Assembly: GCA_011050235.1 (NCBI GenBank)
Contig: DRGC01000032.1
Location: 30,042-94,041, forward strand
DNA from: Phycisphaerae bacterium
GTDB lineage: Bacteria > Planctomycetota > Phycisphaerae > SM23-33
DNA: 64,000 nucleotides
Direction of reading: 5' to 3'
The number at the start of each line of letters is the position of its first letter. The first letter of the stretch is position 1. Shown here one piece after another: positions 27,824-47,082 of this stretch. The position numbers and the translations under genes are program-made. The notes under the pieces were generated by a model, which had not been told where the DNA came from, did no database searches, and worked only from the letters and a program-made list of their open reading frames with translations.

Positions 27824-30619
<2,796 letters not shown>

Positions 30620-30850
30620 CCGTCATACCTCATGACACACATCGACCCGCCCGGACCGTGGGTTTCGTGGGACCATCATGTAACACATCGGCAAAACGGT
30701 CACCACAAAAAACATTCGCCCCCGCCCGAACCGCGGCCGCCCGTGAGCCGTAGGAACTGCAGCAACTATCGTCGGGGTCGTCCAGTGGGCCGCCCACGCG
30801 CGGCCCGCCCGCCCGTGCAGCGTCGAATAGGACCCGATCGGAGTCAGCGC

Positions 30851-31840
30851 ATGATCGCCAACGTTTTCCAGGGAATGCCGACTCGAGACGTGATGGTCCT
30901 TTTTTCGTTCCTGGCAGCGATCGGCGTGGTCTACGCGGCGACGGGCGTCATTGTGATCCGCTATCTTTGGCGATTGGCGATCGGGTCTAAGAAGCGCCCA
31001 ACGTCCGCTTGGCTGAAGTGGGGCCGGCGGGTCATATTGACTCTGGCCGTGGTGGGCGTGCTCTGCGGCCTGTACGGATGGCTGGTCGAGCCCTATTGGC
31101 TGGAGACGACGCACGCGCAGGCGCCGACCGCCAAGCTGCCGCCAGGCGCCAAGCCGATCCGCATCGTTCACATCAGCGACCTGCACTGCGACCCCAAGGT
31201 CCGCCTGGAAGATGAGCTGCCCCAAGCCGTCGCCGAGTTGAGGCCCGACATCATCTGCTTCACCGGCGATGCGGTCAATTCGCCCGCCGGCCTGGCCAAC
31301 TTCCGGCGATGCATGACGGCATTGGCCAAGATCGCGCCGACCTACGCCGTCTGGGGCAACTGGGAACACTTTTTCCCCACCCTCGACTACTACGGCGGCA
31401 CGGGCGTCCATCTCCTCGACGATACCTCGATCCAACAGACCATCGACGGCCAGCCTGTGACCATTGCCGGAATCCGTCACCGGCGTGACCTTCGATCCGG
31501 CATGCAGCGCGCCCTGGCGAGCATCGAGGGCGAAGGCCCGGTGGTGCTTCTGTGCCACATGCCCAGCATCATTCTCGAGCTGCCCGGCCGGGGTGTCGAC
31601 CTGTGCCTGTCCGGCCACATCCACGGCGGCCAGGTCGCCCTGCCGATCTATGGCGCGATGGTGACACTGACGCCGACGGGCAAGCGTTTCGAGCGGGGGC
31701 TATACAAACATGAGGACACGCACCTGTACGTTAGCCGCGGCTTGGGCATCGAAGGCGGCGGCAACGCGCCGCGCCTGCGATTCTGCGCCCGCCCGGAAGT
31801 GACGCTCATCGAACTGGTCCCCGACCGCCCGGCCCCCTAG
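30851..31840 (+). CDS. membrane-anchored metallophosphoesterase (calcineurin-like)
   Basis: Two N-terminal TM helices. Motifs IVHISDLHCD, FTGDAVN, GNWE and LSGHIHGGQ. It is the only genuine part of the 1343-aa ORF in the track. Confidence 0.7.
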   Translation: MIANVFQGMPTRDVMVLFSFLAAIGVVYAATGVIVIRYLWRLAIGSKKRPTSAWLKWGRRVILTLAVVGVLCGLYGWLVEPYWLETTHAQAPTAKLPPGAKPIRIVHISDLHCDPKVRLEDELPQAVAELRPDIICFTGDAVNSPAGLANFRRCMTALAKIAPTYAVWGNWEHFFPTLDYYGGTGVHLLDDTSIQQTIDGQPVTIAGIRHRRDLRSGMQRALASIEGEGPVVLLCHMPSIILELPGRGVDLCLSGHIHGGQVALPIYGAMVTLTPTGKRFERGLYKHEDTHLYVSRGLGIEGGGNAPRLRFCARPEVTLIELVPDRPAP

Positions 31841-34800
31841 GCCTGTGCGCCCCCTTGCCCCTCAGCCGACGACGTTCGCCGCGGCGCCTTCTGCGGCCAG
31901 GGGAGAATGAAGTCCAGGGCCATGGTCCGCAGCGAGCCCGTCTGCTGGGCGTTGGCGTGACGGCGGGCGATCTTCGCAAACTCCGGGAACCGGGCCTCAT
32001 CGGTATAGAACTCGATCATCGTATGCCCGTCGTCCAAACCGGCCTGTGTCCCATCGCCCAACAGCCAGGGCATCACCCAGCGCCCGTGGAACTCCCGTTG
32101 AATGCCCATGCGCGTGACGGCGAATGTCTCCGGGCTCTTTCGATAGCCAAGGAAGACGGCGACGATCGTCTCGCCCCTGAGCATCACGCGCGGGATGTTC
32201 GGGCTGAACTGGCGAGCCGGCGCCCCGGCCCCGTCGGCAAACCACTGGCGCAGGAACTCGTCCACCTGTTGCCAGGGCACGTCTCCAAGCGGCACGAGGC
32301 GGACGTCCTCGGGGATTTCCTTGCGGCGCCGATAACGGTCGACGATGCCCATGCACAGATCTCTGAACGTCACCCCGTCCATTATGTAGATCGATTCGAC
32401 CGTCGTCGTCTCGAAACTCAGCCGTTCCAGGCATTGCCGGAGCACCACCTGGCTCTCATCCTCGACAAGTGTCGACACCATCCGCTTGGCCCCGCCGGCG
32501 GCCGCCCGGGCCACAGCCGCGCGCATCAGGCGTGTCAGGAGCAGCGCCTCTTGCCCATCGCCCTGGGGAGCATCTGTTTGCTGACGCACGCTCAGTTTCA
32601 ACTTGATCGTATTGCCTGTGGGATCTTGAAGCTGCAGGACCACCGCGCCATGGACGTCGTTGACGCCGGCCGGATGTATCACCAGGACCTCCCGGTTGTA
32701 GGGATCGATGAACGGATTCTCGAACATTTGGCACAGCACGGGTTGATCCGAAGGCAACGTCGGCCGGACGATCCAGGTCGTCTGGCCCGGCGCGCCTTTG
32801 GCGGGGGCCCCCGCTTCGCCTGCGCCAGCCTCCGGCGAGAATGTCACCTCTCGTGCGGCGGCGTTTTCCGCCACGTAGTCGTCCAGGCACTCGTCGGCGG
32901 CGGCCAGGTCGTCGATGAACTGGCGCTGCCACTCGGCAATCTCCCGTTGGGCTTGTTGGATATGAGCATCACTGGCGGGAGGCGGCTCATCCAGGCCGCC
33001 ATCCGTTGAGGCCGACTTGCGCTGTGAAGGGCTGTCCCCGGCCTGCATCCGAGCCAGCGCTTCTTGTGCGGCCGTATGGTTCGGATCGATACCCAAGGCG
33101 GTCTCAAAGGCCTGTTTCGCGCGGTCGCAGTCGCCCAGCTCAGTCAGGGCCCTGCCCAGCGCCACGTGTCCGGCCGGGCGGGCGAAATCCACCCCCACAG
33201 CCTGCAGCGCCGCCTCGGCGGAAGGGGCGAACTGTCCCCAGCGATACAGGGCCTCCGATAGGCCCATGTGGCCCGGCCAGAAACCGGGGGCCAATTCGAC
33301 CGATCGCGTAAAGGCCTCAATAGCCCGCGGCAGGTGATCCGTCAGCAGACAGGCCCGGCCAAGATGGTAGAACAGTTCGGGAATCGGTGGGTCGTCCTCC
33401 GCCGCCTGTTCCAACAGGTCCATCGCCTGGTCGGTCTGTCCGCTGTGCAAGGCGATCAGGGCGGCCATCAACTTCCCGACCGGCTGGTCAGGGAACGACC
33501 GGGCGATCGGCGCCGCCAAGGCGAGGGCCTGGCGGACCTGCCCCCCGACATAGAGCGCGTGCGTTGCGGTCAGGGCCCTGGCTACGTGCAACGGATGGGT
33601 GTAGTACAGGCGAAGCAGCAGCGGCAGGGCCATCCTCTCGCGCGAAGAGCCCAGAAACGTTCGAGCCAGGTTCCACTCACGGTCCGTCCGGACGCCCGTC
33701 GCCGCCCGGTCCGCGTGGGCGGCGAAAAAACCGATCTCCTCGATCCATGAAGCCGGGGCGGCCAGGTGATCCGCCGGCGGGCGATGCGGCGGGGCCTGAT
33801 CCCACGACGCGGCCATCTGGATCGACAAAGGCGGCTGGCTGAAGGCCTCCGTTAGCACTCGCCCGTCCATGTCATCGCCCGGGGCCAGGCCGCACAGATG
33901 CAGAACGGTCGGACAGAGGTCGAGGCTATGGACGTTGTGAATCAACTCGCCTTCGACCACGCCCGGCGCCCGCATGACGAAGATACCTTCGCCTCGATAG
34001 ACCGAATCGAGCGGCATCAGTTGCGCTGCTCTGCGCCGAGGCCGTCGGGCAGGCGGCGCAAAGCTGCAGGCCGAGTACAGCACGATCGCAGCGTCGTCGC
34101 CGGCCAACTCCAACAGCCGTCCGAGGAGCAAATCACACAGCCGCACCGCAGCCGCCGCCACGCCGCTGAACAGTTCAAATCCCCGCATGTCCACCCACGG
34201 TAGGCGCGGGGGATGGTATTTCAGAAACTGCATCCACAACGCCTCAATAGCGGGATAGGTCACCGACGTGACGTCCCAGTCGGTCTTCTCCATCAGCCTG
34301 GTCACGACCGCGTGGATGGACAGGGTCTGGGAGACGATGGCGGCAATGGTCACCAGCCGCGGGTCGTGCGCATCGAACTGCCCGAAACGCGGGACGAACA
34401 GGGCCATCGTCTCGGCATCGATCTCTTCCAGGGAGACGACGAACTCCTTGAGGGATCCGAGATGATTGGCCGGCAGGACGCTGCCGAACGGCACGACGAA
34501 CGATGATTGATAGCTGGCGGGGATGTTTCGGAAGAACTCCGGGCTGACGAAGACACCGTTGACGGGCTCGGCCGGCGCGGTGGCGGGGAAACTGACGACG
34601 TTGCAGCGGCGCCCGCTCTGCGAAACGATCTCCCAGAATGCCTTGGCCCGGCGCGACAGGCTGTTGACGGCCTGCACCGCCCCGTTGCTGCGGACCTCAC
34701 TGGGCCCCAGAACGCCGTGTTTGTCGGCGCGCTTGCCGGTCGCGACGGTGTTATGCACGATCGGAGCGATCAGGGGTCCCTGGGTCAAGGGGGTCCCCAT

Positions 34801-34941
34801 CACCCCCTGGTCGACGAGGCGTTGGAGATTGGGCAACTGCCCGCTATCCAGCATCGGGGTGATCTGGCGCCACCCGGCTGAATCCCAGCCGACCATCAAG
34901 ATCCTGGTGCACTTGGCCTGACTCGAACTCATCATTTGCAT
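31837..34941 (-). CDS. 1034-aa protein: N-terminal AlkP-superfamily NPP/type-I-phosphodiesterase-like domain + TPR repeats + unassigned C-terminal domain (paralog A)
   Basis: ILMVGWDSAGW...TPMLDSGQLPNLQRL...HNTVATGKRADKHGVLG resembles the NPP motif around the catalytic Thr, but the Thr position is not conserved. Central TPR repeats. The C-terminal ~350 aa are unassigned, possibly GNAT-like. Confidence 0.6.
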   Translation of the reverse strand: MQMMSSSQAKCTRILMVGWDSAGWRQITPMLDSGQLPNLQRLVDQGVMGTPLTQGPLIAPIVHNTVATGKRADKHGVLGPSEVRSNGAVQAVNSLSRRAKAFWEIVSQSGRRCNVVSFPATAPAEPVNGVFVSPEFFRNIPASYQSSFVVPFGSVLPANHLGSLKEFVVSLEEIDAETMALFVPRFGQFDAHDPRLVTIAAIVSQTLSIHAVVTRLMEKTDWDVTSVTYPAIEALWMQFLKYHPPRLPWVDMRGFELFSGVAAAAVRLCDLLLGRLLELAGDDAAIVLYSACSFAPPARRPRRRAAQLMPLDSVYRGEGIFVMRAPGVVEGELIHNVHSLDLCPTVLHLCGLAPGDDMDGRVLTEAFSQPPLSIQMAASWDQAPPHRPPADHLAAPASWIEEIGFFAAHADRAATGVRTDREWNLARTFLGSSRERMALPLLLRLYYTHPLHVARALTATHALYVGGQVRQALALAAPIARSFPDQPVGKLMAALIALHSGQTDQAMDLLEQAAEDDPPIPELFYHLGRACLLTDHLPRAIEAFTRSVELAPGFWPGHMGLSEALYRWGQFAPSAEAALQAVGVDFARPAGHVALGRALTELGDCDRAKQAFETALGIDPNHTAAQEALARMQAGDSPSQRKSASTDGGLDEPPPASDAHIQQAQREIAEWQRQFIDDLAAADECLDDYVAENAAAREVTFSPEAGAGEAGAPAKGAPGQTTWIVRPTLPSDQPVLCQMFENPFIDPYNREVLVIHPAGVNDVHGAVVLQLQDPTGNTIKLKLSVRQQTDAPQGDGQEALLLTRLMRAAVARAAAGGAKRMVSTLVEDESQVVLRQCLERLSFETTTVESIYIMDGVTFRDLCMGIVDRYRRRKEIPEDVRLVPLGDVPWQQVDEFLRQWFADGAGAPARQFSPNIPRVMLRGETIVAVFLGYRKSPETFAVTRMGIQREFHGRWVMPWLLGDGTQAGLDDGHTMIEFYTDEARFPEFAKIARRHANAQQTGSLRTMALDFILPWPQKAPRRTSSAEGQGGAQA

Positions 34942-35034: not shown

Positions 35035-38000
35035 CTATGGTTTCTTCTGGCCCGGCTGCGACCAAGGCACGACGATATCCAGTGTCATGATCCACGTCCG
35101 GGCGAGTTCTTTGCCGCCCGTCCGACGGCCGATTCGGATCATGTCAGGAAAGACGCTCTCATCGGCATACAAGTGGATCGTCCGCAGACCGCTGTCGTAG
35201 CCGGCCTTGGCCCCGTAGCCGACAAGCATCGGCGTCGCCCAACCGTTCTGGTATTCGTCCAAGACGGCAAGACGCGGCGAAATCCATATGTCATCTTGCA
35301 CATGACCCACGTAGCCCGCGATGATCTCATCGCCGCGCAGGATCACCAGCGACAGACGCTCATCCAGGCCCAGTCGTCCGGGCCCCACACCGTCGTCGAA
35401 GAAGCCTTGGAAGAACTGGTCGACCTTGTGCATGGGCACATCCCGAAACGACACAACCCGGACGTCGTCTGGGATCACCTGCCGCTGCCTGCAGCGCTCG
35501 ACGACCCTCAGACACCGATCGCGTGTTGCGGCCATGTCCATGCCAAAGACCATCTCGCGTTTCTTGACCCGGAAGCCCACTCGTTCGAGGGATTCTCTCA
35601 GTTGCCCTTGTCCTTCAGGGGAAAAGGCGTACGAGACCGCCGTTGCCCCGGAGGCGACCGCACGAATGATGCCCGCACGAATCAGCGCCCATCGCGCGGT
35701 GTTCTCGTCTAGGCCGACATCGGCCGCCGCGGCGAGGGAGGCGAGATAGGGCACAAGCGCGATGCGCTTGCCGGTGTTGTCGCCTGTCCGCAGGGATACG
35801 GCGCCGATCAATGGGATTTCGCCCTCCCGGTGAAGGACAAAGACGTCATGGCGATGGTGTTCCGTCAGCACCCGGGAGGTGATTTCGCTCACCTGGCCAA
35901 AATCAGCAGGCATGATGGGGCGTACGACAAGCCCCATGTCGGTCAGCATCGGCCCGGATATCTCGCTCGATTCCGCCGGCGGCGCCTGGTCGTCCTGGTC
36001 GGCCAGTTGGCTGGCGTTGGTGGCAAGATACGCATCCAACTGCTGATCCGCTTGTCGGAAGCAGTCGATAAAGTTGTTGGCCCAGATCGAGACCTCTCGA
36101 CGGGCGCCGGCGACACCCAGGCGCAATTGGTCCACATCCCAGCGTGACGGCCCCTCACCGGCCAGGGGCAGGGCGTCCTCCTCTTCGACGTCCTCAAGCT
36201 CCCCACCGGATTGCAGGTGGGCCAGTCGGTTCTTGGCCAGCGTGAAATTCTCATTGAACCTCAGGGCGTTGGCGTAGGCCTGCTTGGCTTGCTCCGGATC
36301 GTCGAGTTTTTCCAGACACATGCCCAGCATATAGTGGGCCGGCGCGCTGGAGAAGTCCACCGACAGGGCCTGCAGCGCCTCGTCGGCGGCCGCTTCGTGC
36401 TCTCCCGACGCGAGGCGCACCCGACTGCGTCCCAGATACCCGGGGATGCAGGTCGAATCGATCTCGATGGCCTGGGTGAAGCAGTCCATGGCCCGGCCCA
36501 GTCGGTGCGCTCGCCGATGGACTTCCCCCAGGTAGAGGTACAACTGGGGGATCGGCGGATTGTCTTTAGCGGCATCCTCGAACAGATCCAGGGCCTCATA
36601 GTCGCGGCCTTCGCTCTGGGCGATGACGCCGGCCATGCACTTCCCAGCCGGGGACTGGCCATGAACGGACACAAAGTTCCGCATGACGGTGATCGCTTCT
36701 TCGGTGAGGCCGTGGAGATATAGCGACTCGGCCACCAACGGCGCCATCTCCGTCCAGAACGGGGTGACATAGTATAACCGGGTCATCAGAGGCAGGGCCA
36801 GATCGGGGCGCGAGGAGTTCAGGCAGGCTTCGGCCTGGTTCCAGTCGTTCTGCATCTGCACCCATAGCGCATTCCGACCGCCATGCGCTGAAGTAAAGGA
36901 CATCTGCTCTGTCCACGGGATCGGCTGGCGGTCCTCGGGCAACGCCGGTCTGACGGGCGGACGTGTCTCCCAGGTCTTGATGGTCTTGGCCTGAGGCAGT
37001 GGTTGAGCGAACGCGTCGGTCAAGACGCGACCGTCCATATCCTCCGGCACGGCGACATTGCACAGGGCCAGCACCGTCGGACAGAAGTCCGTCTCTCGGA
37101 CGCCATGAATCAACTCATCACGTCGCGTGCCGTCGGCCCGCATGACGAAGATGCCCTGCGGCCGATGCAGCTGCGCTTCCGTCCGAGGCCCGGACACTGG
37201 GGTCTGTGACACCCGATGATGCGCCTGATACGCCCGCGGGGAATAGATAATGACCGCGGCATCCTCGCCGGCCAACGCCAGCACGCGCCCCAGAAGCAAG
37301 TCACACAGGCGGACCGAACTGTTGACGACGTCCTTGAACAGGTCGAACTCCTCTGGGTCCACCCAGTCCAGACGAGGGGGATGGTACTGCAGGAATTTTC
37401 GGGAGAACACCTCGATGGCGGGATAGTTGACGCTCATGACGCGCCACTGCGAGTTTTCCATCAGCCACGTCGCCACCGCATGCACGGACAGCGTTTGCGT
37501 CACGGCGCTGGCAATCTGAGCCAGGCGATCGTCACGGAACGACAACTCGCTCATCCGCGGCACGAACAAGCCGACGGTGGGCGGATCCAGATCTTCCAGA
37601 GCGACGATGAACTCCTGAAGCGTCGACGCCAAATCAGCGGGCCAGACACTGTCTTCCGGCACGTGCACCGGGCTCCAACTGCTGGTCCGCTGGCTGCCAA
37701 AGAATGCACGACCGACAAAGCTGCCGCTCGTTTCTTCGGCGGGCTCGGCCGTGGGAAAATTGACCACGTTGCATAGAACGTCATTCTGCGAGAGGATCTC
37801 CCAGAACGCTTTGGCGCGGCGTGATAGGCTTGTGATCGGCCGGAACGACTGCCCGTAGCTGCCCATCTCGTGGGTGCCGAATATGCCATGCTTTTCCGGA
37901 TACTTGCCAGTCGCCAGAGAGGAGTACACCATCGGCTCCATTACAGGTCTGACCGATGTCATCGACCCCATCACCCCTTGCTCGAGGACCCGGGCCAGAT

Positions 38001-38145
38001 TGGGCAGTTCGCCACGGTCCAGCAGAGGGGTGATCACGTCCCAGCCGGCCGCATGCCAGCCAACCAGCAAGACTTTTTGATCCTTCGGATTACTCTTAGG
38101 CGCCACGGTGGTACTCCTGTACGAGGTGCACTCGGCGTGCTTCAT
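35035..38145 (-). CDS. 1036-aa paralog B of the NPP-like/TPR protein
   Basis: Same architecture. LLVGWHAAGW..TPLLDRGELPNLARV...SSLATGKYPEKHGIFG is a very NPP-like block. About 45-50% identity to paralog A over the N-terminal domain, by eye. Confidence 0.6.
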   Translation of the reverse strand: MKHAECTSYRSTTVAPKSNPKDQKVLLVGWHAAGWDVITPLLDRGELPNLARVLEQGVMGSMTSVRPVMEPMVYSSLATGKYPEKHGIFGTHEMGSYGQSFRPITSLSRRAKAFWEILSQNDVLCNVVNFPTAEPAEETSGSFVGRAFFGSQRTSSWSPVHVPEDSVWPADLASTLQEFIVALEDLDPPTVGLFVPRMSELSFRDDRLAQIASAVTQTLSVHAVATWLMENSQWRVMSVNYPAIEVFSRKFLQYHPPRLDWVDPEEFDLFKDVVNSSVRLCDLLLGRVLALAGEDAAVIIYSPRAYQAHHRVSQTPVSGPRTEAQLHRPQGIFVMRADGTRRDELIHGVRETDFCPTVLALCNVAVPEDMDGRVLTDAFAQPLPQAKTIKTWETRPPVRPALPEDRQPIPWTEQMSFTSAHGGRNALWVQMQNDWNQAEACLNSSRPDLALPLMTRLYYVTPFWTEMAPLVAESLYLHGLTEEAITVMRNFVSVHGQSPAGKCMAGVIAQSEGRDYEALDLFEDAAKDNPPIPQLYLYLGEVHRRAHRLGRAMDCFTQAIEIDSTCIPGYLGRSRVRLASGEHEAAADEALQALSVDFSSAPAHYMLGMCLEKLDDPEQAKQAYANALRFNENFTLAKNRLAHLQSGGELEDVEEEDALPLAGEGPSRWDVDQLRLGVAGARREVSIWANNFIDCFRQADQQLDAYLATNASQLADQDDQAPPAESSEISGPMLTDMGLVVRPIMPADFGQVSEITSRVLTEHHRHDVFVLHREGEIPLIGAVSLRTGDNTGKRIALVPYLASLAAAADVGLDENTARWALIRAGIIRAVASGATAVSYAFSPEGQGQLRESLERVGFRVKKREMVFGMDMAATRDRCLRVVERCRQRQVIPDDVRVVSFRDVPMHKVDQFFQGFFDDGVGPGRLGLDERLSLVILRGDEIIAGYVGHVQDDIWISPRLAVLDEYQNGWATPMLVGYGAKAGYDSGLRTIHLYADESVFPDMIRIGRRTGGKELARTWIMTLDIVVPWSQPGQKKP

Positions 38146-38286: not shown

Positions 38287-40266
38287 CTATGGGCCGCGAC
38301 GTTTGTGAAGCTCTGCCCAGTCGTTCGTGAAACTCTTGAGTATAACCGGAAGCAGCAGAGTCGGTTCGACCATATAGCGAAGGATATCATACAAGAAGAC
38401 ATTGGGGCTGGCGCTCGCGTTCCGCAGGCGGAACCGACGGTAGCCGAGGTCGTAGACACGCTTGAGTTCCATGACGGTGAAATTACGGGATCGCGGGCCG
38501 GGCGCCAACCTGGCCCTCGGTGTTGACGATTCGTCTTGACCGCCCTCTGGCGTGCTGCCCCAGGGGGCGTCGTCGTTGACCACGATCTCGATTCGGTCGC
38601 GATCGAGTCTGGCCAGCAAATCCAGATCGAACCCGTCTGAGGGAGATACGGCAACGACGTCGAATCGTTCGGCCAGCGCGTTGTAATGCTCCGCTTGTCC
38701 GCAGCCGCCTTCGGCGATCGTCTTGGCCAGCGATGCCGAGAGCCTCAGCTCCGGATGTCGAGATCGAATGTGATCAGCCAGCACGTCGCTGGCGACCTCT
38801 ACGCCGTTGAGGCGACTTTCGTGATCGAGGATCTCCAGGATGCCATTGCCCGACTCATCGCCAAGATCGGCCGATTGGAGTTGGTGGCTGTTGAAGATGC
38901 AGAACACCCCGATATCCATCTTATTGAAACGCCCAACGACCTCAGCCCACCCCGCCAAGTTCAGCCTGGATCTTGCCGATCGGGGCAGCCCGTTCCAACG
39001 CACCTGAAGTTCACCGTAAACGCCATCGACGCTCGTCTGACACTTGAGCTCTTCAGTCAACACACCAAGGACGTTACGGATCACCTGTCCGTGGGCGGTC
39101 AGGCCCTCGATCGACCAACGACCATCCGGCCATAGCGGATGTCGACCCTCCATTCCGGTCGGCAGGCCGGTTCCAGCCATGATGGCCGGGCCCACGACTG
39201 TCGGCAGGGCTGGCGCAGGCTCTGCGGGGCATGCCTCGACGGCGGTCGACGCGGGGACACCGGTCTTCGCTTCCTGCAGGTGGGCGCGGCGGACATTCCT
39301 GACCGATTCCAGGGCCTGGCGGGTGACTTGGCCTGAAACGAAGGCCTTGAAGATGACGGGCGTAAGGAGTTCCGGCTCGACCGAGAAGCGAAGCAGGTCG
39401 AACAGGAATGTGCCCGGCATGTTCTGACGCCCCTGCAGCTTGAAGCGGCGGAAGCCCATCTCGTAGACCCGCAGCAAATGCGCCATGGAGAAGTTGCAGG
39501 ACCGCACGACCGGCGTAAGCCGCCCCCCGGGCGCTCGGCAGTACTTCTTTCGCGTGTATTCGTACTCCAGATCGGAGGCATCGGGTAATCCGGACTTTAT
39601 CAGCTCCGCCATCACCTGGTAGTCGTTTATGCGGTGCGTGCACAGATAGGCACAGTCCTCATTGACCATGATCTCGGTCTTCTCGCGGTCGAGCTGCTCC
39701 AGCAGGTCATACTCAAACCCGTCATCGGGATGCACCATGACGCCGTCGTACCGCTTCAGGACCGAGCGATAGTAGCCCAAATCGCCGCGCCCCTCTTCTT
39801 CGGTGACTTTGACGATCGAGGCCGTCAGCCTCAACTCCGGGTGCCTTTGGCGAACGTAGTCCAACAGCAGATCACTAGCCAAGATCACACCGTTGAGGCC
39901 CAGACCATTGTCGATGCCCTCCAGCAGCATGTTGCAGTTGGCGTTCGCCAGATCGCTCTTGTCCAGCAAGTGATTGCTGAAGGTGAAGTAAACCCCGATC
40001 CCCACATCGTTGAATGACCGCACCATTGCCTCCAGGGCTTCCGGTGTCGGTACCCGCACGGTGCTGATCCGACCGCAATTCCACGGGACCTCAGGCGCTC
40101 CATGAATGCTGTCAAGATTCAAGTGGCAGCCGTACCGATCCTCAAGGACGCTGTAGACCTGGAGGATCAACTGGTCATGCACGAACAGGCCGGTGAGGTT
40201 CCAGTGCGCCTCCGGCCAAAGAGGATTCCTCGCTTGATAACCGAATGGCAGTGAGTCCGTCATCAC
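38287..40266 (-). CDS. 659-aa protein made of two tandem copies of an uncharacterised ~300-aa module (paralog 1)
   Basis: Module hallmarks are NPLWPEAHWN / HPLWPDGRWS, FNDVGIGVYFTFSNHLL / FNKMDIGVFCIFNSHQL, HPELRLTAS / HPELRLSAS, VNEDCAY / VNDDAPW, RVYEMGFRRFKLQ / RVYDLGYRRFRLR and EPELLTPVIFKAF / EPTLLLPVILKSF. A beta/alpha pattern suggests a TIM-barrel-like fold. Confidence 0.55.
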   Translation of the reverse strand: MMTDSLPFGYQARNPLWPEAHWNLTGLFVHDQLILQVYSVLEDRYGCHLNLDSIHGAPEVPWNCGRISTVRVPTPEALEAMVRSFNDVGIGVYFTFSNHLLDKSDLANANCNMLLEGIDNGLGLNGVILASDLLLDYVRQRHPELRLTASIVKVTEEEGRGDLGYYRSVLKRYDGVMVHPDDGFEYDLLEQLDREKTEIMVNEDCAYLCTHRINDYQVMAELIKSGLPDASDLEYEYTRKKYCRAPGGRLTPVVRSCNFSMAHLLRVYEMGFRRFKLQGRQNMPGTFLFDLLRFSVEPELLTPVIFKAFVSGQVTRQALESVRNVRRAHLQEAKTGVPASTAVEACPAEPAPALPTVVGPAIMAGTGLPTGMEGRHPLWPDGRWSIEGLTAHGQVIRNVLGVLTEELKCQTSVDGVYGELQVRWNGLPRSARSRLNLAGWAEVVGRFNKMDIGVFCIFNSHQLQSADLGDESGNGILEILDHESRLNGVEVASDVLADHIRSRHPELRLSASLAKTIAEGGCGQAEHYNALAERFDVVAVSPSDGFDLDLLARLDRDRIEIVVNDDAPWGSTPEGGQDESSTPRARLAPGPRSRNFTVMELKRVYDLGYRRFRLRNASASPNVFLYDILRYMVEPTLLLPVILKSFTNDWAELHKRRGP

Positions 40267-40441
40267 AGGCGGCCCTTTCTCAACACGTAACCTACCGTCA
40301 TCATTCCCTTAAAGGCAGCTAGGCCCAAGCCGGCTTGGACGGCTCAGTGAATTATAATGTCCTGCCCGCCTGCCGACAAACGAGAACCCATCCCCGGGTG
40401 CATCGGAATGGGTCGACGGCGGCCGGTCCGCCCCGTCGTCC

Positions 40442-42472
40442 TCACGGCGATTGGCTCGCCTGCAAGCCAGTCCCATCGAGGGCGACGGACGCCTGCTCGC
40501 GCGCCCAGTCGTTCGTGAAGCTCTTGAAGACCACCGGCAGCAGCAGGTTTGGCTCGAGCGTATAGCGAAGGATGTCATACAAGAACAGATTGGGGTTGCG
40601 GCCGGCGCTTTGCAGGCGAAACCGACGATAGCCGAGGTCGTAAACCCGTTTGAGTTCGGCGGTGGTGAAGTTGCGCGATCGGACGTCGGCGTCCAGAGCC
40701 GACATCGGCATCGCCCGGCGGTCGGCCGACCCCTTCGGGGCGCCGTCCGCCGCGCCGCACCACGGGGCGTCGTCGTTGACCAGGATCTCGATTCGGTCGC
40801 GATCGAGTTGGGCCAACAAGTCCTCGTCGAAGCCGTCCTCGCTGCATAGGGCGACCGTGTCGAACCGTTTGGCCAGTGACTGGTAATGCTCCACTCGCCC
40901 GCCGCCGCCTTCGACTATCGTCTTGACCGCCGAGGCCGTCAGCTTCAGTCCCGGATGTCGAGATCGAATGTGATCGGCCAGCACGTCGCTGGCCAGGCCC
41001 ACACCGTTGAGCCCGGATCCGTCATCGAGAATCTCCAGAATGCGATTGCCCATGTCGTCGTTCAGGTCGGCCGATGCGATCCGGGTATCGTTGAACAGGC
41101 AACGAACGCCGACGCCCATGTCATTGAATTGTCGGACGGTCCGAGCCCACAGTTCCATGTTCATTCCGCCCGCCCCCGACTGACGCGCCCCGTTCCAGCC
41201 TGCACCAGGCCCGCCGCCGCACACGCGCTCAACATTCGGGCGACCGTCGAACCGATCGGCCAACAGCGCCAGCATTTCGCGGATCAGACGTCCGTGGGTG
41301 GCCATGCCCTCAATCGTCCAACGCGCATCCGGCCAAAGCGGGTGTCGAGTTTCGGCGCCGGTCGGCAACCCATCGCCGGCCACGACGGGCGCCTGCACGA
41401 TCATCGGGCGGGGGGGCGCCAAATCGCCCTGGCGCGCCTCGTCACCGCCGGCCGCGCGAGCCGCATCGGGCGCCCGCTGGTAGGCGGCCCGGGTCTTGGT
41501 GACCGCTTCGGCGGCCAGACGGCTGACGCGCCCGGAGATGAAGGCTTTGTAAATGACCGGCGCGAGGATGTCCGGCTCGATGGCGAAGCGAAGCAGCGAG
41601 AACAGGAACGTCGCCGGCATGTCTTGTCGCCCCTGCAGCTTGAAGCGGCGAAAGCCCATCTCGTAAACGCGCACCATCTGCGCGGTGGGGAAGTTGCAGG
41701 ACTGAATAGCCGACGTGAGCTTTTTCAGCGGCATGCGGCAATGGCGGCGCTCCATTACCATGTAGGGATTATCGGGCCCGGGGAGCCCGCCCGCCTTCAG
41801 CACCTGGGCCATCACCTCATAGTCCTTGACGCGGTTGGGGCACTGAAAGGCGCAGTTCTCATTGACCATGATCTCGATCTTGTCGCGGTCGAGCTGGTCC
41901 AGCACCTCGCAGTTAAACCCGTCGTCGGGGTGGACCATGACACTGTCGAACCGCGGAAGGACCGACTGATAGTAGGCGACATTGCCGCGCCCGCGCTCCT
42001 CGGTAACCTTGATGATAGAGGCCGTCAGCTTCAGCTCCGGGTGCCTCCGGCGAATGTGATCGTACAGCAGGTCACTGGCCAGGATCACGCCGTTGAGGCC
42101 CAGGCCGTTGTCGATCGACTCCAACAAGCGGTTGCACGCCCGGTCGTCCAGATCGTTCTTGTCCAGCAGGTGGTTGCTGAAGGTGAAGAAGACCCCGATC
42201 CCCACGTCGTTGAATGTCCGGAGCATTGCCTCCAGAGCCTGCGCTGTCGGCGCCGGCGTGAAGCTGAAGCGACCACAGTTCCACGGAACATCCGGCGCGC
42301 CGTGAATGCTGTCGAACTTCAGAGGACACCCGAATCGCTCATGGAGGAGGCTGAACACCTGGAGGGTCAGCAGATCATGGACGAATAGCCCCGTCAGATT
42401 CCATCTGGCCTCTGGCCAGAGAGGATTGCGGGCGGCCAGGCCGGACGGCAATTGGGAAATCATTGGCAACAT
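40442..42472 (-). CDS. 676-aa paralog 2 of the duplicated-module protein
   Basis: About 65-70% identical to 38287..40266 over the first module, by eye. Same two-module architecture. Confidence 0.55.
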   Translation of the reverse strand: MLPMISQLPSGLAARNPLWPEARWNLTGLFVHDLLTLQVFSLLHERFGCPLKFDSIHGAPDVPWNCGRFSFTPAPTAQALEAMLRTFNDVGIGVFFTFSNHLLDKNDLDDRACNRLLESIDNGLGLNGVILASDLLYDHIRRRHPELKLTASIIKVTEERGRGNVAYYQSVLPRFDSVMVHPDDGFNCEVLDQLDRDKIEIMVNENCAFQCPNRVKDYEVMAQVLKAGGLPGPDNPYMVMERRHCRMPLKKLTSAIQSCNFPTAQMVRVYEMGFRRFKLQGRQDMPATFLFSLLRFAIEPDILAPVIYKAFISGRVSRLAAEAVTKTRAAYQRAPDAARAAGGDEARQGDLAPPRPMIVQAPVVAGDGLPTGAETRHPLWPDARWTIEGMATHGRLIREMLALLADRFDGRPNVERVCGGGPGAGWNGARQSGAGGMNMELWARTVRQFNDMGVGVRCLFNDTRIASADLNDDMGNRILEILDDGSGLNGVGLASDVLADHIRSRHPGLKLTASAVKTIVEGGGGRVEHYQSLAKRFDTVALCSEDGFDEDLLAQLDRDRIEILVNDDAPWCGAADGAPKGSADRRAMPMSALDADVRSRNFTTAELKRVYDLGYRRFRLQSAGRNPNLFLYDILRYTLEPNLLLPVVFKSFTNDWAREQASVALDGTGLQASQSP

Positions 42473-42694: not shown

Positions 42695-43990
42695 TTACGC
42701 ACGCTTCCTTCGGTGCAGCAGCCCTACGGCGCCCAGGGCCAGCACAGTCAGCGTGGCCGGTTCGGGGACACCACCAGCGCCCGGTCCCGACGAGCCAAAG
42801 GCCTGCTTAAGAATCGCAAGGTCCGTGGCGTCGATAGTGCCGTCGCCGTTGGCATCGCCGAGCTCGAAGCCGGGCAGGATGGGCCGGCTGCCGTCCTCGG
42901 GGAAGTAGCCTCCGGTCCCGAAGTTCGCCTTCAGGATGGCCAGGTCCGTGCCGTTGACGGACATATCGCCGTTGAAGTCGGGGACGATTCGTATCACATC
43001 ATCCCCAACAAGCTCCGTGCCGTCAAGCAGCTGGCCGGTCAGTTCCAGATCGGTCATTCCCGGCAGGATTCCCAGCGACTGCGTCAAAAACTGCATGACC
43101 AAGTCATCGATCCCATCGTCATTCACGTCCTCGAAGTCGGCCTGCCATATGCCGTTGGAGTTCTGAACGACGTTGGCGTCGTTCAGCTCAACCGTCGACA
43201 CGTCGATGTCAGCCACGTCCAGGTCTTCGGTGCCGAAGATAACAACAGGCGTCTTGCCGATCGACTTGAGGTTGATGGGGTTCTCATCGCTGTCAGGCTT
43301 GATGTCTATGTCTATTGGTATGAACGGCGGCGGGACTTCGCCACCACCGGCATAGACAGCCCGACCGGGAATATCCGAGAACGCGAACTCATTCAACCCG
43401 ACGGCCCAGTACGCCGTCATGCTGATGTCCGCCCAGCCATAGAAGCGGTCGGCGCCGACATCGGCGTACAAGCCGATGGTGCCGCCACCGCCAAAGGGCC
43501 ACTCGCCATGGAACCAGAAGTACCAGCCGCCCAGGCCGCCCGTGTCAGTCACGGAATCATCGGACCAATTGCGACCACCAGCCAACGTGTCGCCGATTTC
43601 GTAGCCTCCGCCAAGCCTGCCGACGTTCCATACATTGCCGCCAGCGACGTAGCCTACGTTGGAATTGGTGCCGTCACCGACCTGAAGGGTCGTGGCGTCT
43701 TTCCGGTCATATCCATACCAATAGAAGTCCTGTTCCTGGAAGGTGAAACTGTCGGCATCCTGCCCTAACGACAGAAGTCCTGTGTTGGCGGTGTTCACCA
43801 CGACCGTCCCGTCCATCTTGAACGAGAGCATGTCCTGTCGCCAGTTGCTCGTGCCGTCCCACCAGCCCGCGCCGCCATTGTTGAAGACGTTCATGGCAGC
43901 GTTGGCGGGAACAGCCTGGGTGGCCAAAACGGCCGCACCAGCCGCCAGGGAGTAAGCTCCCAGCTTCTTTGCTAAATTGCCTTTTCTCAT
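42695..43990 (-). CDS. PEP-CTERM protein with dockerin-like Ca-binding repeats
   Basis: Signal peptide. Two DxNGDGxIDxxDLAILKxxFG repeats of dockerin/EF-hand type. The C-terminus is VPEPATLTVLALGAVGLLHRRKRA (PEP-CTERM). Confidence 0.65.
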   Translation of the reverse strand: MRKGNLAKKLGAYSLAAGAAVLATQAVPANAAMNVFNNGGAGWWDGTSNWRQDMLSFKMDGTVVVNTANTGLLSLGQDADSFTFQEQDFYWYGYDRKDATTLQVGDGTNSNVGYVAGGNVWNVGRLGGGYEIGDTLAGGRNWSDDSVTDTGGLGGWYFWFHGEWPFGGGGTIGLYADVGADRFYGWADISMTAYWAVGLNEFAFSDIPGRAVYAGGGEVPPPFIPIDIDIKPDSDENPINLKSIGKTPVVIFGTEDLDVADIDVSTVELNDANVVQNSNGIWQADFEDVNDDGIDDLVMQFLTQSLGILPGMTDLELTGQLLDGTELVGDDVIRIVPDFNGDMSVNGTDLAILKANFGTGGYFPEDGSRPILPGFELGDANGDGTIDATDLAILKQAFGSSGPGAGGVPEPATLTVLALGAVGLLHRRKRA

Positions 43991-44561: not shown

Positions 44562-45800
44562 TCATCGACGACGTGACACCTTGCCGCGCTTGACCTTCTT
44601 CCCCCTGCCCTTCGCCATCAAGCGGCGGAAGTCGGCGTTGGCCTTGCGGCGGACGCCCTGCCCCTTGCCCGTCGAAAGCTTCCGCTCCAGGCGGTTCATC
44701 AGGCGCTCCATCTCGGCCGCATCGACCGGCAGGTCGACGGTCTTTTCGCTGTAGCCCGCCAGATGCATCGCGTTGGACAGCTCCAGCTCGTTCAGCGCCT
44801 GTCGGCCATCGGCGAAGTCGAAGGGCTTCTTGCCCGTGAGGATCAGGTGCACGAAGCCCCGCGTGATTTCGATGTGCCCGTCCGGGCGATTCTTTACCGG
44901 CACGTCGGTCCACGTGATGCCCTGCTCCGCCCCGCCAGCCATCGCGTTGGCCGAGGTGAAGATGTGCTTGCTGACCGGCATCTTGAGCTTGCCGAGTTTG
45001 ATCTTGCCCCACTCCTCCAGAACGATCGTGCCCTTGTCGCCGCAGATCATGAACTGCTCGTAGCCGGGCTCCTCGGCCGTGGTCGCATAAATGTAGCCCA
45101 CCTTGCCCTTGCCGTAGTCCAGCAGGAAGTTGGCGCAGTCCTCCACCTCGATCTTGTGGCGCCGCGTGGAGATCAGCCCCAGCACACGCTTGGGCATCCC
45201 GACGATCCACTGATACAGGTCCAGATGGTGCGGGGCCTGGTTGATCAGCACGCCGCCGCCCTCGCCGTCCCACGTGCCGCGCCACGCGCCGCTGTCGTAA
45301 TACGCCTGCGTGCGGAACCAGTTCGAGCAGATCAGCTGCGCCCGAAAGACCTCGCCGATCGCGCCGCGGTCGATGAGCTTCTTGACCGTGATCATGTCGG
45401 CCCGCGCGCGCTGGTGGAGCATTACGCCCAGGTGCACCCGGCGCTTCCTGCATTCGGCGATCATCGCGCGGGCGTGGCCGACCGTGCTCGATAGCGGCTT
45501 TTCGCACATCACGTGCAGACCCGCGCGGGCGGCGCGGATCGTCAGCGGCGCGTGCCAGTAGTGCGGCGTCGCCACGATCACGGCGTCGCACAGGCCCGAG
45601 TCGATCATCTCCCTGCCGCTGGCAAACCAGGCAACGTCGTACTTCTCGCCGAAGGTCTTCGCCCTATCGGCGTCGATGTCCGCCACCGCTGTGAAGCTGA
45701 AGCGCCGATCCTTGTCGGCGGACATGATCTCGGCGTGACAGCCACCCATCATGCCCAGCCCGATGATGCCGAAACGAACGTGCTTGAGTTTCTTCGCCAT
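44562..45800 (-). CDS. Gfo/Idh/MocA family oxidoreductase with Lys/Arg-rich C-terminal tail
   Basis: Start at MAKKLKHVRFGIIGLGMMGGCHA. Rossmann GxGxxG, EKP motif and a C-terminal alpha/beta domain are present. The tail is KGRGKKVKRGKVSRRR. Confidence 0.8.
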   Translation of the reverse strand: MAKKLKHVRFGIIGLGMMGGCHAEIMSADKDRRFSFTAVADIDADRAKTFGEKYDVAWFASGREMIDSGLCDAVIVATPHYWHAPLTIRAARAGLHVMCEKPLSSTVGHARAMIAECRKRRVHLGVMLHQRARADMITVKKLIDRGAIGEVFRAQLICSNWFRTQAYYDSGAWRGTWDGEGGGVLINQAPHHLDLYQWIVGMPKRVLGLISTRRHKIEVEDCANFLLDYGKGKVGYIYATTAEEPGYEQFMICGDKGTIVLEEWGKIKLGKLKMPVSKHIFTSANAMAGGAEQGITWTDVPVKNRPDGHIEITRGFVHLILTGKKPFDFADGRQALNELELSNAMHLAGYSEKTVDLPVDAAEMERLMNRLERKLSTGKGQGVRRKANADFRRLMAKGRGKKVKRGKVSRRR

Positions 45801-45891
45801 CAGTGGCTCCTGTCTGCGGATCAACTCGTTGCGAGGCGGCCAGTCTAGGTCTCGCCCCCCAGGATTGCAAGACGCCCCGCCCGCACCTAGT

Positions 45892-47082
45892 ATGGCGGCC
45901 ATGAGCAACGTCTGGGTCAAGATCGAGAGGCTCACCCGCCCCGAACAAGCGTTGAAAGTCGCCGCCATGGGGGCCGACGCGATCGGGTTGGTCTTCGCCG
46001 AATCGCCGCGGCGCGTGACAATCAAGCAGGCCCAGGCCATTGTCGCCCCCCTGCCGCCGGCGACCCAGACCGTCGCCCTGTTCGTCAACACCGAGGTCGC
46101 CGAGATCAACCGCATCGTCGAACAGCTCCATCCCACGTTCGTCCAACTCCACGGCGACGAGCCGCCTGAGATCGTCCGGTGGATCGACGCGCGGTGCATC
46201 AAGGCCTTTCGCATCCGCAATGCCGCCTGGGCCGACGAGGTGCAGAGCTGGCTGGACGGCCTGCTCGATATCAACGATGTCGCCGCCATTGTGCTCGACG
46301 CCTACAGCCCTAAACGCCGCGGCGGAACGGGCAAGCGGTTCAACTGGCAGTGGGTGGCCGCTGCCCGCGACGCCCGCCGGCTCGAACACTGGCCGCCCAT
46401 AATCCTCGCCGGAGGTCTGAACGCCGACTGCGTCGCCGACGCCGTCCGCGGGCTCCAGCCGTTCGGCGTCGATGTCGCCAGCGGCGTCGAACGTTCGCCG
46501 GGCATCAAGGACATGAAGAAAGTCGCAGCCTTCATCGCCGCCGCCGGCAGCGTCCACCCGCCCCCCGGCGATACAGCCATCGACCGATGGCTGCGCAGCG
46601 GCCGGCGGACGAAACTGCTGCGACACCTCGACGCGCATCCGCAGTTGAAACGCCGACGGCCTTGGGGCCCGTCCGTGCTACACCGAGCTTCCCGCGCCAA
46701 GAAGCGACAGGCCCTGACACGGATGTTGATCGCCCACGGCGTGTGTGTTGACCAACGAGACGGCCTGGAGATGACGCCGCTGATGACGGCAGCCTCCGAC
46801 AACGACGTCGAGATGATCAGACTTCTTCTGGCACAAGGGGCCGACGCCAACGCCTGCAACTGGTCCAGCGAGACGGCCTTCAGCTACGCCTGTTGTTACA
46901 ACTGCTTCGAGCCAGCCAAACTCCTCCACGAACATGGTGTCGAGATCAACCGCCCCGACACGCACGGCGCCACGCCCCTGGACTGGGCTAAGTACCACGC
47001 CTCGAAGCGATTCTACGACTGGCTGATAAGCATCCACTGCGTCCACCGCGCCGAACCCCCCGGCCACTGCCCGCGCCGATAA
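45892..47082 (+). CDS. trpF: phosphoribosylanthranilate isomerase fused to C-terminal ankyrin repeats
   Basis: The N-terminal ~210 aa (MSNVWVKIERL...GADAIGLVFAESPRRV...ILAGGLN) match TrpF. The C-terminal ~170 aa contain 3-4 ankyrin-like repeats (TPLM.AA..N..EMIRLLLAQGADANA, GATPLDWA). An alternative start lies at 45901. Confidence 0.65.
   Translation: MAAMSNVWVKIERLTRPEQALKVAAMGADAIGLVFAESPRRVTIKQAQAIVAPLPPATQTVALFVNTEVAEINRIVEQLHPTFVQLHGDEPPEIVRWIDARCIKAFRIRNAAWADEVQSWLDGLLDINDVAAIVLDAYSPKRRGGTGKRFNWQWVAAARDARRLEHWPPIILAGGLNADCVADAVRGLQPFGVDVASGVERSPGIKDMKKVAAFIAAAGSVHPPPGDTAIDRWLRSGRRTKLLRHLDAHPQLKRRRPWGPSVLHRASRAKKRQALTRMLIAHGVCVDQRDGLEMTPLMTAASDNDVEMIRLLLAQGADANACNWSSETAFSYACCYNCFEPAKLLHEHGVEINRPDTHGATPLDWAKYHASKRFYDWLISIHCVHRAEPPGHCPRR

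Follow-up and report, generated by a model that had tools for sequence, protein, structure and literature searches.

We examined two adjacent genes, designated A and B, on the minus strand of a 64,000-nucleotide stretch of a Phycisphaerae bacterium genome (GenBank assembly GCA_011050235.1, contig DRGC01000032.1, positions 30,042 to 94,041; hereafter the window, numbered from its first letter). Each gene encodes a protein built of two homologous modules, and each module is predicted to fold as a (beta/alpha)8 barrel of the kind found in the U32 superfamily; the first barrel of each protein carries a candidate metal site and the second has a degenerate copy of it. The duplication, the barrel fold and the U32-like fold are taken as shown, with high confidence. 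We somewhat favour the further reading, drawn by analogy with characterised U32 proteins, that A and B may be metal-dependent, O2-independent modifying enzymes, that is, divergent U32 double barrels with an intact N-terminal and a non-catalytic C-terminal barrel.

Duplicated modules and their predicted fold

Four large genes, B, A, C and D, follow one another on the minus strand of the window (Table 1). Protein A was 100% identical to a public protein (P0001, "LCGC14_0525260, marine sediment metagenome") that starts one codon later and is 658 amino acids (aa) long, and B was identical in alignment to P0008, which carries the NCBI name "Phycisphaerae bacterium". The modules are about 300 aa long, two in each protein and four across A and B. 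The two proteins shared 60% identity over their full length (393/655), their N modules being 65% and their C modules 59% identical, and the N module of A aligned with the C module of B over 316 aa at 40% identity (E 5e-64). The identity between A and B together with that between modules therefore places the four-module arrangement far beyond chance. A first-pass annotation, made from the sequence, had described an internally duplicated module present in four copies across two tandem paralogues; these values bear it out, and its coordinates were exact. Of the six peptides that it quoted, five occur as given in the N module of A, which has TEIMVNEDCAY for the sixth; the quoted IEIMVNE is the reading of B. 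GC content was 0.60-0.64, resembling the remainder of the window, and the N termini of A and B were without a hydrophobic signal-like stretch.

Table 1. Positions of genes A and B, their barrels and motifs, and the genes flanking them (window numbering)
Feature	Positions	Strand	Size or residues	Description	Basis
Gene A	38287-40266	minus	659 aa (658 from ATG at 40263)	two-module U32-like protein	open reading frame (ORF)
Gene B	40442-42472	minus	676 aa	two-module U32-like protein	ORF
A, N-terminal barrel	39262-40266	minus	aa 1-335	predicted eight beta/alpha units, intact site	
A, C-terminal barrel	38311-39183	minus	aa 362-652	degenerate; EIVVNDDAPWG in place of EIMVNEDCAYLC	
B, N-terminal barrel	41462-42472	minus	aa 1-337	intact site: E200, C207, C211, D217, C245, C259, K278, R282	
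B, C-terminal barrel	40493-41377	minus	aa 366-660	degenerate; conserved Cys gone, about 22 residues missing, strand-8 K->R and R->A	
Candidate metal-binding segment of A	39490-39675	minus	strands 7-8	E198-x6-C205-x3-C209-x5-D215...C243...C257	
Strand-8 motif of A	39427-39447	minus	RFKLQGR	aligns with VKIEGRQ of E. coli UbiU	
Upstream gene	42695-43990	minus	431 aa	signal peptide, Gly/Trp/Tyr-rich domain, two dockerin repeats, PEP-CTERM signal	Pfam
Partner gene C	35035-38145	minus	1036 aa	AlkP-superfamily (Phosphodiest) domain, TPR repeats, C-terminal tandem GNAT fold	
Partner gene D	31837-34941	minus	1034 aa	paralogue of C, same architecture	

An AlphaFold2 model of A (md7f65223fe03), built on a 19-sequence alignment, gave a mean predicted local distance difference test (pLDDT) score of 84.7 and a predicted template modelling (pTM) score of 0.87. 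Each of the two modules showed eight beta-strands alternating with helices, those of the N module at residues 21-25, 51-56, 91-96, 126-129, 146-149, 175-177, 197-202 and 274-277; confidence was low in the inter-module linker (340-356), in the loop 235-241 (with low pLDDT around 235-250), in one C-module loop (575-579) and in the tail at the C terminus (650-659). When the model was searched with Foldseek, the U32 peptidase Mk0906 (5d88) ranked first (E 1.2e-6, target template modelling score 0.64), and the top matches were triosephosphate isomerase (TIM) barrels throughout, with 5d88 well ahead of any glycosidase. The periodicity that had been likened to a TIM barrel at first reading is thus reproduced by the model, and the (beta/alpha)8 barrel of 5D88 type, one of the features by which membership of PF01136 is judged, is present in it as a prediction.

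The candidate metal site and the degenerate second barrel

The family signature, E-x6-C-x3-C-x5-H...C (in A numbering E198, C205, C209, position 215 and C243), lies between strands 7 and 8. Across 135 single-module relatives, C205, C209 and C243 were each conserved in 99%, and position 215 was His in 93%; N202 (93%), E198 (91%), R280 (90%) and K276 (89%) followed. The two-module alignment comprised 19 proteins, 18 of them with the N module, and in their N barrels E198, N202, E203, C205, C209, C243, K276, Q278 and R280 were invariant; N98, H99, S150, H179, D182 and R212 were likewise kept by all. C257 was nearly invariant in the two-module proteins and was found in only 29% of the single-module relatives. 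The E198-x6-C205-x3-C209 segment occupies the same place, the end of strand 7, as the E-x7-C-x6-C of U32 proteins; the spacing differs, and no significant alignment spans the segment. Residues E162, C170 and C177 of TrhP and E161, C169 and C176 of RlhA are essential for RNA hydroxylation (PMC6599085), and UbiU binds a [4Fe-4S] cluster via C169, C176, C193 and C232, as does UbiV via four Cys, the two forming a heterodimer (PMC6747719). We consider it fairly probable that the candidate site is homologous to that of the U32 enzymes, and an iron-sulfur (Fe-S) centre appears slightly the better choice over zinc.

The C modules of A and B retained the barrel core together with S150, D182, E198 and N202. 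In both, EIMVNEDCAYLC was swapped for EI[VL]VNDDAPW, about 25 residues of the ligand loop were deleted, C243 and C257 were lost, and K276 and R280 were changed to R and A, respectively. Judged from the 59% identity between the two copies, the C barrel is still under constraint. The two modules stand in one chain (inter-domain model pTM 0.87), and unfused adjacent genes were seen elsewhere: two intact single-module genes in locus L015 (Tepidisphaeraceae), a degenerate gene next after an intact one in L019 (Akkermansia; for example C205G, C209M, H215F and C243G) and in L026, and one degenerate with two intact genes in L005. The pairing of barrels, often of a live one with a dead one, is thus a trait of the family, and the window proteins would be the fused form of an adjacent intact and degenerate pair. 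In a sister clade (P0015, P0016, P0018 and L014) the two-module proteins carried C-x3-C-x5-H...C in both barrels. A neighbour-joining tree of the modules grouped the degenerate C barrels with other degenerate copies along one long branch, a placing that long-branch attraction may explain. The degenerate C barrels may share the internal duplication that gave rise to the intact ones, or they may descend from a degenerate paralogue of greater age.

Family size and relationship to U32 proteins

A word-indexed search of 5.8 billion proteins returned only 18 clusters, all aligning across both modules and 654-699 aa in length save for one 577-aa fragment. The fusion is therefore rare, as the first-pass annotation had supposed in calling a tandem two-barrel protein unusual, but multi-copy arrays of the module are the rule in the family. 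A HMMER search run exhaustively over 1.84 billion cluster representatives (clusters at 50% identity) found 1093 at E<=1e-3, of which 711 passed E<=1e-10 and 138 passed E<=1e-30. Of the 150 matches listed, nearly all were single-module proteins of 270-370 aa. The single-module relatives scanned individually showed no Pfam domain above threshold. At E<=1, 67 of 136 single-module relatives matched PF01136, the best at 3.7e-6; the relatives examined one by one had scores of 12.8-21.2 bits, and their matches were collinear, with family residues ~100-200 (strand 4/5) falling on profile positions 5-89 and ~235-287 (strand 8) on 130-186. The family profile also aligned weakly but collinearly with E. 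coli UbiU (A 116-192 with UbiU 82-153, and A 262-286 with UbiU 256-280), which set FKLQGRQ of the family on VKIEGRQ of UbiU in strand 8. A database search seeded with UbiU recovered orthologues of 85-99% identity only. Zinc-finger and UPF0728 matches in the Pfam and NCBIfam scans of A and B were dismissed as chance. Because the sequence matches (PF01136, UbiU), the IMG name of one relative as a PrtC family protease and the fold result were taken together, the module is placed in the U32 superfamily, as a very divergent branch beyond the cover of current family libraries; by Pfam's own criterion, A and B fall outside PF01136.

The known U32 proteins (PF01136/IPR001539: UbiU-UbiV, TrhP (YegQ), TrhP1/TrhP2 (YrrO/YrrN) and RlhA (YdcP)) resemble A and B in the (beta/alpha)8 barrel, with 5D88 as best match, in a strand-7 Glu followed by two Cys with more Cys before strand 8, in a common strand-8 motif K-[IL]-[EQ]-G-R, in occurring as pairs of paralogous barrels, and in their presence in anaerobes. 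They differ in the ligand pattern, which is E-x6-C-x3-C-x5-H/D-x27-C(-x13-C) in the window family and E-x7-C-x6-C-x15/16-C-x3/4/38-C in U32, and in the characteristic N-terminal P-L-W-P-E-A-R-W-N-L segment of the window family. Moreover, the barrels of A and B are fused in one chain, the second without ligands, and their partners are a PEP-CTERM protein and an AlkP-like/TPR/GNAT protein, not UbiT or RNA-modification genes. The side-by-side paralogous barrels of UbiU-UbiV (E. coli yhbU/yhbV) make up one unit, of which A and B resemble a covalent form; the unfused adjacent pairs of L015, L019 and L026 match it more literally. Unlike UbiU and UbiV, each of which binds [4Fe-4S], A and B have one ligand-bearing barrel per chain (both barrels bear ligands in the P0015/P0016/P0018/L014 clade), and neither an SCP2 (UbiT) partner nor ubiquinone genes lie nearby. 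The TrhP1-TrhP2 pair offers a parallel to the live and dead barrel pairs of the family. With radical SAM enzymes the family has in common a barrel-type fold and a C-x3-C element, and some relatives sit in radical-SAM-rich clusters; membership was rejected, there being no C-x3-C-x2-C after strand 1, a Cys motif that follows strand 7, and no PF04055 match.

Conserved cassette, proposed function and alternatives

Every related locus with enough sequence showed the same order: a gene for a PEP-CTERM protein that also has a signal peptide and a Gly/Trp/Tyr-rich region, then one to three two-module genes, then one or two genes encoding AlkP-like, TPR and C-terminal domains. The PEP-CTERM homologues ahead of the two-module gene in L001, L022 and L023 were shorter than the window protein (236-243 aa) and without the dockerin part; the upstream proteins shared 35-52% mutual identity by BLASTP, and PF07589 was found on the L023 gene. 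Wherever the sequence of a related locus extended beyond the two-module gene(s), a homologue of partner gene C followed them. The C-terminal domain of the partner, modelled from 3 sequences at moderate confidence (pLDDT 69.7), was clearly a tandem GNAT fold, and the AlkP-like domain had no sequence relative in the PDB. Gene C reads VGWHAAGW where gene D and its homologues read VGWDSAGW; to judge by this motif, a metal-binding Asp may have been changed, leaving one copy catalytically altered. Locus L022 (5750-12001), on a metagenomic contig, carries three consecutive two-module paralogues (675, 577 and 666 aa) ahead of one partner gene, with sulfatase and alkaline phosphatase genes after it. 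We found no paper linking U32 to PEP-CTERM cassettes.

Retrieval of genome loci with alignment A1 gave 9 loci, and the host taxa of the genome loci were Brocadiia, Planctomycetaceae, Tepidisphaeraceae, Phycisphaerales, Bacillota, Akkermansia and Acidaminococcaceae. A single-module relative in L010 (433-8808) lies with three radical-SAM genes and, three genes away, a type II chorismate mutase (E 1.3e-14), the prephenate-making enzyme; another in L025 (1002-12170) lies among five radical-SAM genes. Both clusters look like anaerobic natural-product or peptide-modification clusters. They also carry a SPASM-type enzyme, a C1 peptidase and a GNAT protein. Other single-module genes followed a sulfatase or stood beside a metallophosphoesterase, and L023 carries glycyl-radical enzyme and ferredoxin-type (Fer4) genes. 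These settings (radical-SAM, glycyl-radical and ferredoxin-type genes) are consistent with anaerobic chemistry. A distant single-module relative was present in Negativicutes (Acidaminococcaceae, Phascolarctobacterium; L020 7937-8884 and L021 9899-10801), in surroundings that we take, from N-terminal sequences only, to resemble an hrcA-grpE-dnaK-dnaJ-[module]-...-ybeY-era-recO housekeeping cluster; this setting would point, in that branch, to a possible role connected with RNA or the ribosome.

Elsewhere in the window, a 333-aa ORF (30623-31624, minus strand) with no Pfam match lies between partner gene D and leuS (27824-30619). On the plus strand, 45751-47082 encodes a phosphoribosylanthranilate isomerase (TrpF/PRAI) fused to ankyrin repeats; the same PRAI-ankyrin fusion (L012, 587-1768) adjoins the single-module gene P0020, the closest single-module relative. 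The ORF of a Gfo/Idh/MocA oxidoreductase (44562-46289, minus strand) has an N-terminal extension of about 170 aa that overlaps the start of the divergent PRAI-ankyrin gene, and its true start is for that reason probably further downstream.

The explanation that we propose is as follows. A and B would be cytoplasmic enzymes, each of two tandem (beta/alpha)8 barrels of the U32 superfamily. Barrel 1 would bind a metal centre, most likely Fe-S, via C205, C209, C243 and C257 (or D215); the centre would sit at the C-terminal face of the barrel, and E198, N202, E203, K276, Q278, R280, H179 and D182 would line the catalytic face. Barrel 2 would most likely be a non-catalytic partner that completes a dimer-like unit, so that each protein would be a covalent version of the catalytic/non-catalytic pair seen as adjacent genes elsewhere. 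By analogy with UbiU/V, TrhP and RlhA, the enzymes might oxidise or hydroxylate their substrate without O2, perhaps by using prephenate, the oxygen donor for U32-linked hydroxylation (PMC10990095). Hydroxylase chemistry as such is a tentative suggestion. The conserved linkage suggests that the enzyme would cooperate with the AlkP-like/TPR/tandem-GNAT protein, and the candidate substrate would be the co-encoded aromatic-rich PEP-CTERM protein or another envelope component; that the substrate is a protein we consider unlikely. A more far-reaching version, which we regard as decidedly improbable, would make the cassette a cytoplasmic protein-modification system of anaerobic Planctomycetota, in which a new Fe-S, O2-independent hydroxylase of prephenate type would oxidise aromatic side chains of the surface protein encoded in the cassette before its export (e.g., Tyr to a residue like dihydroxyphenylalanine), with the TPR-GNAT partner holding this substrate and adding modifications of its own; the single-module family (>1000 clusters) would then be an unrecognised sister family of the U32 hydroxylases, used in anaerobic natural-product and macromolecule modification.

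A number of results weigh against an assignment of A and B as U32-type Fe-S enzymes. Even with the threshold relaxed to E<=10, PF01136 (gathering score 22.4 bits) matched neither A nor B, nor any of the 19 two-module proteins; the NCBIfam U32 models gave no meaningful match to A or B (UbiU at E 0.19); the family profile, compared by hhalign with UbiU and UbiV of E. coli and with a UbiU alignment, reached only 11-17% probability; and no PDB sequence was matched by phmmer with A or by hmmsearch with the family profile A2. The module family is uncharacterised and is recognised by neither Pfam nor NCBIfam. At the site itself, the Cys spacing, C-x3-C-x5-H/D...C, departs from the U32 motif CX6CX15CX3/4C, and in place of the four Cys of a U32 [4Fe-4S] site the family-wide set is C, C, H, C. 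Position 215 is Asp and not His in the N barrel of all two-module proteins, and the loop bearing C243 was modelled at low confidence, the convergence of the ligands in space being a supposition. Chorismate mutase, sought in all of the fetched loci (about 20), was found in L010 only. Direct hydroxylase activity in vitro is unproven even for canonical U32 enzymes (PMC10990095).

The Cys3His set could equally bind zinc. If it (or a Cys4 set) did, A and B would be non-redox TIM-barrel enzymes (of the hydrolase, lyase or aldolase kind) or would carry a purely structural site, and the U32 likeness would reflect barrel ancestry only. This is the alternative that we take most seriously, at a probability well short of even. 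The segment of a Glu and then two Cys falls just past strand 7, however, at the position of the essential Glu-Cys-Cys in TrhP and RlhA; the best fold match was a U32 protein and not a zinc aldolase, and some relatives are encoded within anaerobic clusters rich in radical-SAM and Fe-S genes, in one case alongside chorismate mutase. A genuine U32-type peptidase that processes the Gly-rich PEP-CTERM protein, or some other protein, would suit the cataloguing of the closest fold as a U32 peptidase, the IMG label of one relative ("collagenase-like PrtC family protease"), and a cassette that combines a Gly-rich secreted protein with a TPR (protein-binding) partner. It is nevertheless improbable: proteolysis by U32 proteins has no established catalytic mechanism and the characterised members are Fe-S hydroxylation factors, A and B are without a signal peptide whereas the candidate substrate is exported, and the conserved Cys are arranged as a metal site, unlike a protease triad.

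A further alternative is that both barrels merely hold or bind the AlkP-like/TPR/GNAT enzyme as a scaffold, with no catalysis of their own. In its favour, loss of the site is clear in the C barrels, and every N barrel of the fused proteins has Asp in place of His215; yet nine site residues, from E198 to R280, are invariant in the N barrels of two-module proteins, which points to a maintained active site and makes a scaffold role very improbable. Least probable of all is the retaining glycoside hydrolase of clan GH-A type raised in the first-pass annotation, with an NE acid/base and a later Glu or Asp nucleophile. The proteins do have the TIM-barrel fold in common with that clan, with acidic residues at strand ends, and GH18, GH20, GH84, GH113 and GH5 were among the lower-ranked fold matches. 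In clan GH-A the acid/base Glu ends strand 4 (N-E-P) and the nucleophile Glu ends strand 7; this catalytic pair is absent from A and B. The NE lies on strand 7 (197-202), not strand 4, and the Glu269 of YEMG is not a strand-7 residue but falls at the end of the helix that precedes strand 8. Nor is Glu269 conserved, the position being D in 44, N in 21 and E in 18 of the 135 single-module relatives and Gln in one two-module homologue. The GH-A idea fails on these grounds, among them the conservation check that the first-pass annotation had itself proposed; in addition, the closest fold was that of Mk0906, and the best-conserved residues were three Cys and a His, for which GH-A enzymes have no need.

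We return to the preferred reading of A and B as divergent U32 double barrels. The module defines a large unannotated family, structurally closest to U32, with a different but topologically equivalent Cys/His signature. To our knowledge, U32 proteins are the only enzymes tied to hydroxylation with an organic oxygen donor (prephenate); few of their subfamilies have an assigned function that we are aware of, and we know of no in-vitro activity or cluster-bound structure. If the site binds zinc, this would be merely an unannotated TIM-barrel family of ordinary interest. If it is that of an Fe-S oxidase, the family would widen the sequence space and the genomic contexts (radical-SAM clusters, PEP-CTERM surface proteins, ribosome-maturation operons) in which O2-independent oxidation can be sought, and its naturally fused double barrels, catalytic and dead, may prove easier to study structurally than UbiU-UbiV.

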